A stretch of DNA of 64,000 bases from Mizuhopecten yessoensis (taxonomy: Eukaryota): positions 353,958 through 417,957 of the forward strand of contig NW_018406002.1 in the NCBI RefSeq assembly GCF_002113885.1, read 5' to 3'. Shown piece by piece: positions 13,671 to 19,141 of this stretch; the stretch's first letter is position 1, and each line of letters opens with the position of its first letter. The position numbers and the translations under genes are program-made. The notes beneath the pieces were generated by a model. That model worked only from the letters and a program-made list of their open reading frames with translations. It was not told the origin of the DNA and did no database searches.

Positions 13671-16270
13671 CATTAACGTTAACATTGTCTGGCGTTGTTG
13701 TCCTCGCCACTGGTAGATCTTACATTAACGTTAGCATTGTCTGTCGTTGTTGTCCTCGCCACTGGTAGATCTTACATTAACGTTAACATTGTCTGGTGTT
13801 GTTGTCCTCGCCACTGGTAGATCTTACATTAACGTTAGCATTGTCTGGCGTTGTTGTCCTCGCCACTGGTAGATCTTACATTAACGTTAGCATTGTCTGG
13901 CGTTGTTGTCCTCGCCACTGGTAGATCTTACATTAACGTTAGCATTGTCTGGCGTTGTTGTCCTCGCCACTGGTAGATCTTACATTAACGTTAACATTGT
14001 CTGGCGTTGTTGTCCTCGCCACTGGTAGATCTTACATTAACGTTAGCATTGTCTGGCGTTGTTGTCCTCGCCACTGGTAGATCTTACATTAACGTTAACA
14101 TTGTCTGGCGTTGTTGTCCTCGCCACTGGTAGATCTTACATTAACGTTAGCATTGTCTGGCGTTGTTGTCCTCGCCACTGGTAGATCTTACATTAACGTT
14201 AGCATTGTCTGGCGTTGTTGTCCTCGCCACTGGTAGATCTTACATTAACGTTAGCATTGTCTGGCGTTGTTGTCCTCGCCACTGGTAGATCTTACATTAA
14301 CGTTAGCATTGTCTGGCGTTGTTGTCCTCGCCACTGGTAGATCTTACATTAACGTTAACATTGTCTGGCGTTGTTGTCCTCGCCACTGGTAGATCTTACA
14401 TTAACGTTAGCATTGTCTGGCGTTGTTGTCCTCGCCACTGGTAGATCTTACATTAACGTTAACATTGTCTGGCGTTGTTGTCCTCGCCACTGGTAGATCT
14501 TACATTAACGTTAGCATTGTCTGGCGTTGTTGTCCTCGCCACTGGTAGATCTTACATTAACGTTAGCATTGTCTGGCGTTGTTGTCCTCGCCACTGGTAG
14601 ATCTTACATTAACGTTAGCATTGTCTGGCGTTGTTGTCCTCGCCACTGGTAGATCTTACATTAACGTTAGCATTGTCTGGCGTTGTTGTCCTCGCCACTG
14701 GTAGATCTTACATTAACGTTAACATTGTCTGGCGTTGTTGTCCTCGCCACTGGTAGATCTTACATTAACGTTAGCATTGTCTGGCGTTGTTGTCCTCGCC
14801 ACTGGTAGATCTTACATTAACGTTAGCATTGTCTGGCGTTGTTGTCCTCGCCACTGGTAGATCTTACATTAACGTTAGCATTGTCTGGCGTTGTTGTCCT
14901 CGCCACTGGTAGATCTTACATTAACGTTAGCATTGTCTGGCGTTGTTGTCCTCGCCACTGGTAGATCTTACATTAACGTTAACATTGTCTGGCGTTGTTG
15001 TCCTCGCCACTGGTAGATCTTACATTAACGTTAGCATTGTCTGGCGTTGTTGTCCTCGCCACTGGTAGATCTTACATTAACGTTAGCATTGTCTGGCGTT
15101 GTTGTCCTCGCCACTGGTAGATCTTACATTAACGTTAGCATTGTCTGGCGTTGTTGTCCTCGCCACTGGTAGATCTTACATTAACGTTAGCATTGTCTGG
15201 CGTTGTTGTCCTCGCCACTGGTAGATCTTACATTAACGTTAACATTGTCTGGCGTTGTTGTCCTCGCCACTGGTAGATCTTACATTAACGTTAGCATTGT
15301 CTGGCGTTGTTGTCCTCGCCACTGGTAGATCTTACATTAACGTTAGCATTGTCTGGCGTTGTTGTCCTCGCCACTGGTAGATCTTACATTAACGTTAGCA
15401 TTGTCTGGCGTTGTTGTCCTCGCCACTGGTAGATCTTACATTAACGTTAGCATTGTCTGGCGTTGTTGTCCTCGCCACTGGTAGATCTTACATTAACGTT
15501 AGCATTGTCTGGCGTTGTTGTCCTCGCCACTGGTAGATCTTACATTAACGTTAGCATTGTCTGGCGTTGTTGTCCTCGCCACTGGTAGATCTTACATTAA
15601 CGTTAGCATTGTCTGGCGTTGTTGTCCTCGCCACTGGTAGATCTTACATTAACGTTAGCATTGTCTGGCGTTGTTGTCCTCGCCACTGGTAGATCTTACA
15701 TTAACGTTAGCATTGTCTGGCGTTGTTGTCCTCGCCACTGGTAGATCTTACATTAACGTTAGTATTGTCTAGCGTTGTTGTCCTCGCCACTGGTAGATCT
15801 TACATTAACGTTAACATTGTCTGGCGTTGTTGTCCTCGCCACTGGTAGATCTTACATTAACGTTAGCATTGTCTGGCGTTGTTGTCCTCGCCACTGGTAG
15901 ATCTTACATTAACGTTAGCATTGTCTGGCGTTGTTGTCCTCGCCACTGGTAGATCTTACATTAACGTTAGCATTGTCTGGCGTTGTTGTCCTCGCCACTG
16001 GTAGATCTTACATTAACGTTAGCATTGTCTGGCGTTGTTGTCCTCGCCACTGGTAGATCTTACATTAACGTTAGCATTGTCTGGCGTTGTTGTCCTCGCC
16101 ACTGGTAGATCTTACATTAACGTTAGCATTGTCTGGCGTTGTTGTCCTCGCCACTGGTAGATCTTACATTAACGTTAGCATTGTCTGGCGTTGTTGTCCT
16201 CGCCACTGGTAGATCTTACATTAACGTTAGCATTGTCTGGCGTTGTTGTCCTCGCCACTGGTAGATCTTA
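13671..16270. repeat. 52-bp satellite, 50 nearly identical copies, intronic
   Basis: Unit CATTAACGTTAGCATTGTCTGGCGTTGTTGTCCTCGCCACTGGTAGATCTTA; 2600 bp = 50 x 52. Confidence 0.98.
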
Positions 16271-17147
16271 CGGCGACACTGTTTACAGTCTTCAATTTTT
16301 AAGAAGAATTCTTTTTATGGAATCTTTATATTAAAAAAACGAATTGATTATTAAATCCTAATTTCAAACACGTTATGTATAATTAGATGTAGTAATACTG
16401 AAGAATCTTTGACACTGGAATCTATATAAATGTATATGAAAATATGATTCAAATAGGAACACCATTTTCTCACTAACCATTAAGTTTGTCCGTTTCCCCT
16501 CCTTGCCCCTTTCCACCTTCCCTTCCAACTTGTAATTCGATCGTACAGGAGATATTTTTTATCGTCATTTAAAAGATTACTGTCAATTCCACAGAAATAT
16601 ACGGGGCGTCGATCTGTTTGGTCCACGGCACAGATTACTACTTCGCTGAAAAACTCCTTTCTGCATTGTCACAATTTCAACGATATAACTGAATATCGAA
16701 TGTCTGTCTTAAGTAACGGTGAAGATGATGAAAATTAACCGAGGCTAATTTTTCTTGTATTGCTTTCCAGTTTCTTGTGATTGCCTTCCTACTCAGTGGA
16801 GATATTGAGATGGATCGTGACATCAACAAAGGATGTTAAAAAGACAAACACCTGTTATATTACATAACTTTTTTCTGATACTTTCGGTATTTTTTCCATT
16901 CTAATGCTTCAAATGCCTTAGGGGACATAGGGGGATAAGATTGAAGATGATTGAAAAAAGACTGGAGCTCTTATACAATTTCAGGTACAATTGTATTTTC
17001 CTTGATAATAAATTGGAGCCCAATGCAAAAGTAGGTGACTGCTGCCAAATTCTTTCCCATCTACGTACCAATGTGATGGTGATGAAGATTCAAATGGAAA
17101 TCTCTATTGTTTGTTTACAGTTTTAAAATCAAGACAAGGATTAATAG

Positions 17148-18791
17148 AATCTATCACTCCTGTGTGATATAGACAGAGATATCTCATCCCGAGGGTTGAG
17201 ATATCTCTGTCTATATCACACAGAAGTGATTGATTATTTTTCTCCCACATTTTCGTACCGTAAAAATACCTCCACTGCGAAGTTGTATTTTTGACCCCGA
17301 TGCACCGTACTATCATCAATGGCGCATGAATACACGCATAGCCGCTGTACTGCAAATGTGTGTAAAAAAAATCCGCAACGTCAATAATAAATAGAAGTCA
17401 TAATTAAATTTAGATATTTTATACATTAGTAGTATTAGCAACGTTATATTGTATATTAACATTTTTTGTCATAAGATTAAGCGATATAGTGTCTTTAACG
17501 AAAACACACAGAACTAATTGCACTCCCTGACTTCACGCTTCGAAAAGTTCACTCGGAGTCAGAATACAACACCCTCGGTCGTTTCGTTTTGGGGGCTGAC
17601 ATCGTTGTGTTATTGTTTATAGTTATGTTAAAGGTTCCTCCAGTGATTGTTGTGCCTTGGAAGATACTTGGGATTTCACATTCATTGGATTTTAATTTAC
17701 GAACGCGTTCAGGTTCGCACAAGGACATGCTGTTGTGCGCTGTAGTCACATGTGTAATATTTGTTGACTGTTCGTTTGACATTGGCCGATGTGAGGTAGG
17801 TGCACTAGACCCAGTGTGTCGTCCTAAGTCCGTTTGTACGGTTTTATTTGGNNCGCCTCTCTCGTACCTGCGAACTGATGACTGGAAATCAAACTATACC
17901 CATATCTATGACGTTTTAAATACCTTTCAAACGAGCCAAGCATCCCTCTTAAGTAACTGGGTTGATACTCGCTACCATCTTTCTGTCGTACACAAATTAA
18001 AAATTTTGAAAGGTGCGAATCGAGTTCGGTAGTTGGGATTTGGTGCATTTGGCGCAATTCGTTTACGTCGTTCAGAAAATGTTCAAACAGTTTCATATGA
18101 CAAAGAGTTTTCTTTTTCGTGTTAATATTCTCGTTTTGGTCCACAAAGTTTCTTAAGTCATTTTCGTCCATGTTAACAAATCTACCGGCAACGCGTGGGG
18201 CTGTGGCAGTCGCCGTCTGCTGAGGAGAGCCCGGGGGCGCCGGGGTTGTATGTGATCGTCGGGGGGTCAACATTGATTCAGATTGTCCCTGCTCTAACTC
18301 ATGTAGCATTGCCTGTGTTTCTGCATGGGATATTTCACTCAGATATTTGCTCACATCAAAATCAAGCATATCAAACTCAAGTTCGTCGTCTGCTAGCCCT
18401 TTTACCAATTCATGCTTCGACGCTGTAACGATAGTACCGTTACCAAATAATTGCACTTTGTACATAACATACGTTCCTAATGGTTTAACTTCATCTACAA
18501 TTCTTCCCTTTTCACCATTTCTTCCTACGGTAACACATTCGCCTATTTTGAATTGTCGGGATGTTGAGCTTGCCATTATACAGTGTTTGTTTACATGTGT
18601 ATTACATGTGTGTAAAAGGTTATGATGTAATCGTTTTTGCTGAAAGTGCACAGGGTCACAGGTCATGGTGAAAGAAGTGCGTTGTCTGTGACGTAATAGC
18701 GCGTGTCAGCTGTCTTGATCGAGGTAGATCAAGACAGGTTTATCTTTTCCCTACCAAAAACGGAAATGAACCTGTGAAGGGTGGGAGAAAA
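17148..18791 (-). mobile_element. Crypton-type (tyrosine recombinase, DUF3504-related) DNA transposon
   Basis: 88-bp palindrome at 17148-17235. Inverted repeat TTTTCTCCCAC (17238-17248) / GTGGGAGAAAA (18781-18791) brackets a minus-strand ORF with CryptonA/ZMYM/KCTD1-like motifs. Confidence 0.75.
17549..18576 (-). pseudogene. Crypton/DUF3504-related recombinase ORF; the catalytic core is absent at the NN junction (17852-17853)
   Basis: From ATG 18576: MASSTSRQFKIG...RFVNMDENDLRNFVDQNENINTKKKT...LDSHLSKFLICVRQKDGSEYQPSYLRGMLGSFERYLKRH...FAGTREA (the N-terminal core of DUF3504-family proteins). After NN another frame gives PNKTVQ...SIFQGTTITGGTFNITIN...KRPRVLYSDSE*, a typical Crypton C-terminal tail. 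Confidence 0.8.
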
Positions 18792-18945: not shown

Positions 18946-19141
18946 CTATTCCGTCTTTGCGTATTGCAGGGTTATCTGCTCTTGTGAGCAGGTATTGATT
19001 GTTACGTCATTTGTTTGTGAGAGTAACGTCTTCATTTTTTTTTTTAGAAAACGACGTAATTTTCACACACAAACCAATGACGTAACAATCAATACCTGCT
19101 CACAAGAGAAGATTACTCTGCAAAACGCAAAGACGGAATAG
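18946..19141. mobile_element. Fully palindromic ~195-bp MITE, TA-flanked (Tc1/mariner-like)
   Basis: ctattccgtctttgcg...gtattgattgttacgtcatt is inverted to aatgacgtaacaatcaatac...cgcaaagacggaatag. Confidence 0.85.

Follow-up and report, generated by a model that had tools for sequence, protein, structure and literature searches.

A CryptonA element of Mizuhopecten yessoensis carrying an internal complement of its joined ends: a possible folded single-strand recombination substrate

The window analysed here, a 64,000-nucleotide stretch of Mizuhopecten yessoensis DNA, holds a transposon in which the left terminus (A) is followed by its own complement (A') and then by a complement (B') of the distant right terminus (B). 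The question raised by this locus is what such an internal junction is for. A sequence-only reading of the same DNA had proposed a second double-stranded att-like site that might allow inversion of the element or release of its palindrome as a MITE. The A-A'-B'-B layout that it described is real and conserved, and its comparison with the internal complementary region (ICR) of DIRS elements is apt; the ends and the function that it assigned are revised below. The features of the locus are as follows.

17142-18789, no strand assigned: CryptonA element, a gap-collapsed copy (copy alignments; loose ends at 17142; comparison with L062-L064)
17138-17141, plus strand: four target-derived nucleotides resembling the last four of the right end, with no duplication (left flanks)
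17142-17190, plus strand: arm A, forming the left terminus and the left side of the hairpin; the predicted fold leaves bases 6-7 unpaired
17183-17200, plus strand: collapsed hairpin apex (comparison with full copies)
17193-17239, plus strand: arm A', the complement of A, its base 2 nt shorter
17240-17248, plus strand: B', a 9-nt complement of the right end and, together with A', a predicted splint
17549-17851, minus strand: recombinase ORF, C-terminal portion of 100 codons and a stop (ORF reading)
17852-17853, no strand assigned: assembly gap (NN) in place of about 770 bp with the DUF3504 catalytic domain (full copies)
17854-18576, minus strand: N-terminal part of the recombinase ORF (ORF reading; weak QRICH1 match)
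18710-18737, plus strand: small subterminal inverted repeat in the B-side block common to a sister family
18781-18789, plus strand: B, the right terminus and predicted recombinase-binding arm once paired with B'; its last three bases are fixed

The feature is a young copy of a CryptonA element, encoding a DUF3504 tyrosine recombinase, and the original identification as a Crypton thus stands: the protein of one full copy, L063, matches PF12012 (DUF3504) at E 4e-21, with PF00589 (phage integrase) at E 2e-4, below the cutoff, and no RT or DDE domain lies alongside. Placement in CryptonA, a sequence-based assignment, rests on the presence of DUF3504 and the absence of GCR1_C. There was no RT match, and the element has a single ORF and no ITR pair, which sets it apart from DIRS retrotransposons. 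CryptonF and CryptonS are likewise YR-only DNA transposons, and in the available parts of PMC3212892 they have direct repeats of 4-6 bp at their termini; the window family has none, target duplications were 0-2 nt in 17/17 paired copies (419-2713 bp), and no GCR1_C match was found. The element is a dispersed repeat with defined ends and no target duplication, accompanied by non-autonomous derivatives of 419-1034 bp that retain both ends. Searching its own genome (988 Mb) with the left 401 bases returned at least 134 matches (40 of 412 candidates scored) and with the right 401 bases at least 42 (40 of 174 candidates scored). Full copies are 2.41-2.49 kb long, and the window copy is 99.5-99.7% identical to these across its right part; it is without about 770 bp at the gap and about 85 nt of hairpin loop. 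Both the 1.65-kb length and the absence of the catalytic domain are due to the assembly gap, as are the Pfam results for the window's own ORF pieces, which gave sub-threshold matches only.

Several of 14 stretches examined have an unbroken ORF of 597 amino acids, and seven intact, near-identical reading frames suggest recent activity. A structure model of moderate quality (mean pLDDT 53.8, from a 5-sequence alignment) found its best fold match in Cre (E 8e-9), followed by QRICH1, Tn1549 Int, Xer, and the integron integrase IntI (6e-5). In all five families compared, the R, K, R, H, and Y columns show no variation; His-II is Thr in the window family and L135, Gln in L138, and His in L122 and L140. 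One further DUF3504-like ORF (L142:1742-3370, 543 amino acids) has decayed catalytic motifs and no GA hairpin, and is possibly a domesticated host gene.

The termini lie at neither of the positions first proposed. Contigs of two of the four sequencing runs have loose ends at 17142, and copies agree from there to 18789; the left end is thus 17142 rather than 17148/17151, the six bases once read as flank or spacer being common to the copies, and the right end is 18789 rather than 18790-91. A model in which a variable 6-bp spacer separates the two recombinase-binding arms was rejected. All 28 junctions of a right end with a left end found in the genome are exact and flush (control 0), and since the six supposed spacer bases are also common to the copies, they belong to the element itself. 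Many of these junctions join different families, and by eye none of the 28 joins the B end of the window family to its own A end; head-to-tail junctions were therefore rejected as proof of circles, because cross-family joins show insertion at B ends. Contigs of the four runs contained neither an own-family circle joint nor an empty site for the window copy, although contigs drop rare forms and absence is not implied. At loci L075-L102, sister families inserted flush at each other's right ends and inside hairpins have built nested chains. The window also has, directly to the left of the element (approximately 16000-16323), a 52-bp tandem repeat of identical units. Elsewhere, the first left-end bases of the element have become 37-bp tandem arrays (L183/L184 at G000:C3723:433461-435442, and C1714, C4519, and C5514), one locus holding about 45 exact units: a Crypton terminus has here given rise to a satellite.

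Left flanks were taken from 47 distinct sites, of which 12 satellite units were dropped and 35 scored. They prefer A at -4 (24), G at -3 (30), and A at -2 (28), and -1 is variable; the first two element bases are fixed in 29/35 and 34/35 left ends, the first being A instead of T in the other six. At the right end the last three bases are fixed in 41/41, 40/41, and 41/41 copies and are followed at +1 by A (23), T (17), or G (1). The target thus mimics the end of B. The last base of the right end is A in 41/41, and the matching target base is T in 14, A in 10, C in 7, and G in 4 of 35; from these counts, only one junction class is present. Because left ends were counted from an anchor in the terminal sequence, a second class could have escaped those counts, a bias from which the right-end counts are free. 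Among 34 paired elements tested, the joined flanks of L066, L011, L025, and L124 match uninterrupted repeat copies without a gap, giving flush empty sites; most of the 34 had no spanning match, and those for L126 and L127 were set aside as ambiguous, lying in low-complexity repeats. A joint that skips 2151 nt, matching the sister-family element L123:799-2949, occurs in 4/4 runs, with short sides (25-31 nt) inside a high-copy repeat. One member of the L122 family sits between exact direct repeats of 49 bp (L122:751-799 and 2949-2997, numbered on the reverse strand), which the other eight copies lack; this is an assembly artefact or rare repair product.

The imperfect palindrome that had been noted is indeed present at 17148-17235, with four mismatched pairs, and the inverted repeat extends to 17138-17245 at 87%. 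Its 88-bp length is that of a loop-deleted form, as 39 of the 50 full hairpins of the clade measure 150-179 nt. In full copies the apex is longer by about 85 nt and includes two tandem GA/GA mismatches as well as a short tip with a cap; among the 50 full hairpins, the tip site is GA/GA in 24 and unscored in 26, and the outer site is GA/GA in 28 and perfected in 2. The likeness between the internal junction and the joined ends is genuine but not exact: the junction is 2 nt shorter and differs in its first base. The 9-nt right-end motif and its reverse complement at 17240-17248 each occur once in the window. Taken by itself, a 9-bp match between B and B' is not significant (14/100 shuffles were equally good), but it is judged real because it lies exactly at the mapped end and co-varies across families. 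The predicted fold places the crossover between the B/B' and A/A' helices, together with a T.T mismatch and, just inside the crossover, a 2-nt bulge. Two copies are rearranged: L003 has a left arm of the A' type, and the sister copy L129 (600-940) contains a duplicated, partly inverted hairpin that holds the joined ends of its own family, also inverted. Both may be template switches or mis-assemblies, and the L129 structure may alternatively be a replication intermediate.

This arrangement is not peculiar to one family. A protein search of the same genome gave at least 154 matches (150 of 531 candidates scored), and families at 53, 39, 34, and 23% protein identity have terminal hairpins of 114-172 nt with different stems, each followed by B'. 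Metagenome contigs contributed 80 loci, some of them near-duplicates, of which 43 had at least 700 nt after the match; a hairpin of this kind is present in 21 of the 43 and was not found in the other 22. Six own-genome loci (L139, L142, L143, L146, L153, and L154) have no clear GA hairpin and are gapped, truncated, decayed, or possibly host genes. Eighteen hairpins, chosen by hand, were aligned (10 own-genome and 8 metagenome, the ends of the latter set by analogy). GA/GA on the strand that starts with A accounts for 38 of their 55 symmetric 2x2 loops, and TC/TC for none; by eye, a GA mismatch lies 45-50 nt from the end in 18/18, and on both arms in 14. The base of A' is 2 nt short in 14/18, the deficit being absent in the other four. 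One 9-copy family, L122-L130, is a second very young CryptonA family of this genome (2.15 kb, about 99-99.9% identical) and combines a 502-amino-acid ORF with a full catalytic set and an AT-rich hairpin with three GA/GA sites. In the most distant family (23%; L140/L141, approximately 955-1072), the hairpin is capped by a GC stem with a three-purine loop, which we take to be of the very stable GNA DNA mini-hairpin type.

Stems are preserved while their letters change. Across four sister families, 144/156 stem cells are paired even though only 19-27 of 39 arm positions are identical, and 21 of 39 stem columns have two or more pair types. B and B' also co-vary: cognate pairs score 9.3/10 versus 6.9/10 for non-cognate pairs, with 0 of 100,000 permutations as good, over 15 of 26 rows (left out were six with no credible top match, one decayed end, one indel, one neighbour's end, and two near-duplicates). 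Because the metagenome B was taken as the best match to B', the cognate score is inflated, but for the window and L122 families the B end was mapped from copies, independently of B'. Pairing extends over 8-23 bp across families, and 6 of the 26 scans with B' had no credible B as top match. What was found is a conserved imperfect palindrome of variable sequence with strand-specific unpaired bases, as in attC sites, and an internal region complementary to both ends in joined order, as in DIRS elements, the latter being a likeness in working only.

Gene orientation differs between families: in the L135 and L140 families the GA strand carries the ORF, whereas in the window, L122, L138, L152, and L148 families the ORF is on the opposite strand. 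The GA strand thus goes with the terminus and not with gene direction, which argues against a role in RNA. Such a role (3' end formation, a silencing trigger, or stability) might be imagined from the hairpin lying 3' of the ORF in the window family and from the presence of the element in RNA-run contigs, but the hairpin is 5' and sense in two families and 3' and antisense in five, and non-coding copies retain it; we regard this explanation as very improbable indeed.

The flip of the gene bears also on the proposal that the internal junction is a second duplex att site, serving inversion or MITE release. That proposal draws on the mirrored junction, on the varying gene orientation, and on the A'-type left arm of L003. 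However, the flip did not occur between B' and B, because some 130 nt of subterminal sequence remain beside B despite the reversal of the gene, being homologous between the window family and L135 (score 93, against a best of 46 in 300 shuffles). The internal junction was never seen as a crossover: A' still adjoins B' at each of the 24 B' sites examined, and of 37 matches to A' arms, 30 were examined, with B' following in 27 and the other three decayed rather than cleanly cut. Inversion at this junction did not hold up, as the two B-side/A' matches proved to be ordinary internal junctions of old copies, and neither did release of the palindrome as a MITE, as those 30 arms included no clean solo palindrome. 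Moreover, the site is 2 nt short, and the short non-autonomous copies keep both ends rather than the palindrome alone. A role as a second duplex site is therefore already largely contradicted, and we give it very little credence. The palindrome is equally not an unrelated MITE, for it was not found independently with ends and a duplication of its own. A different palindromic repeat, unrelated to the element, lies at 18946-19141 of the window; it has sharp ends, 81-nt arms that are 90% complementary, no GA/GA pattern in its arms, and a summed contig depth more than 1000 times that of the Crypton body, and is a very abundant MITE-like element.

The recurrence of a hairpin and an internal complement with different letters makes it likely that the element moves as one folded strand and not as a double-stranded circle. 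We consider it probable, on the sequence comparisons, that one strand (the plus strand of the window) would fold with A pairing to A' and B to B', the internal A'B' splinting both ends into an att-like site. Quasi-palindromes tend to lose mismatches through template switching, and the retention of mirrored GA/GA sites across such distances thus argues for selection on the fold of one strand. In such a scheme, the A strand would become transiently single, by replication or cruciform extrusion, and fold; the recombinase would make one strand exchange at the B/A boundary, yielding a closed single-stranded circle; and the folded circle would recombine, by one exchange, with a double-stranded target mimicking the last bases of B, the product being resolved by replication as in integron attC sites and CTX phage. 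Selecting the strand, and preventing a second exchange, would fall to the sheared G.A pairs and the bulge. Sheared G.A pairs in CGAG/CGAG blocks of DNA hairpins are described from NMR in the available part of PMC10085684, and in that of PMC4792948, strand choice at folded attC and CTX sites is determined by unpaired bases, which also prevent a second exchange. The single junction class fits one exchange and replication without proving that route; strict junction placement is also reported for SE elements (in the part of PMC9345347 at hand), and an ordered double exchange can give a single class too. Other points that weigh against the folded strand are the closest fold being Cre and not IntI, the Thr at His-II in the window family, the six left ends that begin with A, and the 22 metagenome loci in which no such hairpin was found.

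Two other explanations deserve weight. In the canonical model (Goodwin), the intermediate is a double-stranded circle, and the hairpin would be an accessory cruciform or protein loader, with A'B' an extra binding site that aids synapsis. This is the default in the literature, as far as the sections of PMC3212892 used here go; it accords with the Cre-like fold and with the presence in the genome of joined ends in duplex form (L129 and L152). Computed DNA folding energies are also nearly symmetric between strands: they favour the A strand in 16/18 hairpins, mostly by less than 4 kcal/mol, and in the window family not at all (-71.3 versus -71.5), for which the energy is uninformative as a strand test. 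A double-stranded circle, however, does not account for the way B' follows B in each family, for the one-strand GA/GA bias (38 versus 0), for the 2-nt deficit, or for the single junction class, and we hold it to be rather unlikely. The other possibility, to which we assign a low probability, is that the hairpin serves replication, as a priming site or single-strand origin that converts or amplifies the excised circle, end joining being separate. GA/GA sites are distant from the crossover, and some copies (L003, L128, and L129) have hairpin segments that are flipped or made perfect, or an inverted, duplicated end containing a joined junction, all typical of template switching, but such rearrangements may also be passive or come from palindrome mis-assembly, and replication by itself leaves the B' splint flush against A' unexplained. 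A replication role can, of course, coexist with movement as a folded strand.

How much of this was already described can be judged from parts of the literature. Kojima and Jurka (2011; PMC3212892, available sections) give animal Cryptons no terminal repeats, direct or inverted, and the terminal column of their supplement reads n.d. in the rows compared here; the corresponding portion of the 2026 Glomhopper paper (PMC13465315) has terminal repeats variable or undetected, and that of PMC5753468 connects Eulor5/6 with Crypton termini but uses neither "hairpin" nor "palindrome". The titles and abstract openings searched held no description of such ends; a mention may exist in Repbase Reports, in Goodwin 2003, or in Fig. 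1c of PMC5753468. The conserved end architecture is thus apparently undescribed. Against the same portions of PMC3212892 and PMC13465315, the element is like other CryptonA in its single DUF3504 ORF, 2.1-2.6 kb length, two-ended non-autonomous derivatives, and lack of target duplication and classical TIRs, and unlike them in its one-sided hairpin, fixed GA/GA mismatches, and internal complement of the far end.

Comparisons with better-known systems are likewise drawn from the parts of each source at hand. With the DIRS ICR (PMC6681497) the element shares, next to a tyrosine recombinase, an internal sequence complementary in joined order to where one end starts and the other finishes; unlike DIRS elements, it has no RT/RNase H or ITR pair, its splint is flush against a terminal hairpin, and its B' is only 8-23 bp. 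With attC/IntI and CTX attP/XerCD (PMC4792948) it shares conservation of structure over sequence, strand-specific imperfections, and target choice at the level of microhomology. A single exchange with replicative resolution has been shown for attC and CTX, whereas for Crypton it would be so by analogy; unlike either, this is a self-encoded eukaryotic transposon whose site would be assembled from both ends and an internal splint, and unlike attC it has tandem GA pairs rather than single extrahelical bases, with a fold nearer to Cre than to IntI. The SE tyrosine-recombinase element (PMC9345347) circularizes one strand, as the Crypton would, and places its junction bases strictly, but SE elements are bacterial, have four genes, and carry 6 bp of flank, and the sections at hand describe no hairpin or splint.

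Crypton transposition has so far been proposed only by analogy, and the exact ends, target rule, candidate substrate, and young intact copies make its mechanism testable with oligonucleotides and one protein; the L122-L130 family would be a good experimental substrate. The end structure also offers a structural rule by which CryptonA elements and orphan palindromic repeats can be annotated, has a bearing on how DIRS elements and the domesticated ZMYM, QRICH1, and KCTD1 domains arose, and draws attention to a compact recombinase that may insert single-stranded DNA with no duplication. At about even chances, judging from sequence, animal CryptonA would be eukaryotic single-strand recombination transposons, having a self-splinted att site with sheared G.A pairs and a 2-nt bulge, a single-stranded circle, and one-exchange insertion; they would follow an integron- and CTX-like pathway for which no eukaryotic counterpart is known, and the DIRS ICR might have its DNA ancestor in them.
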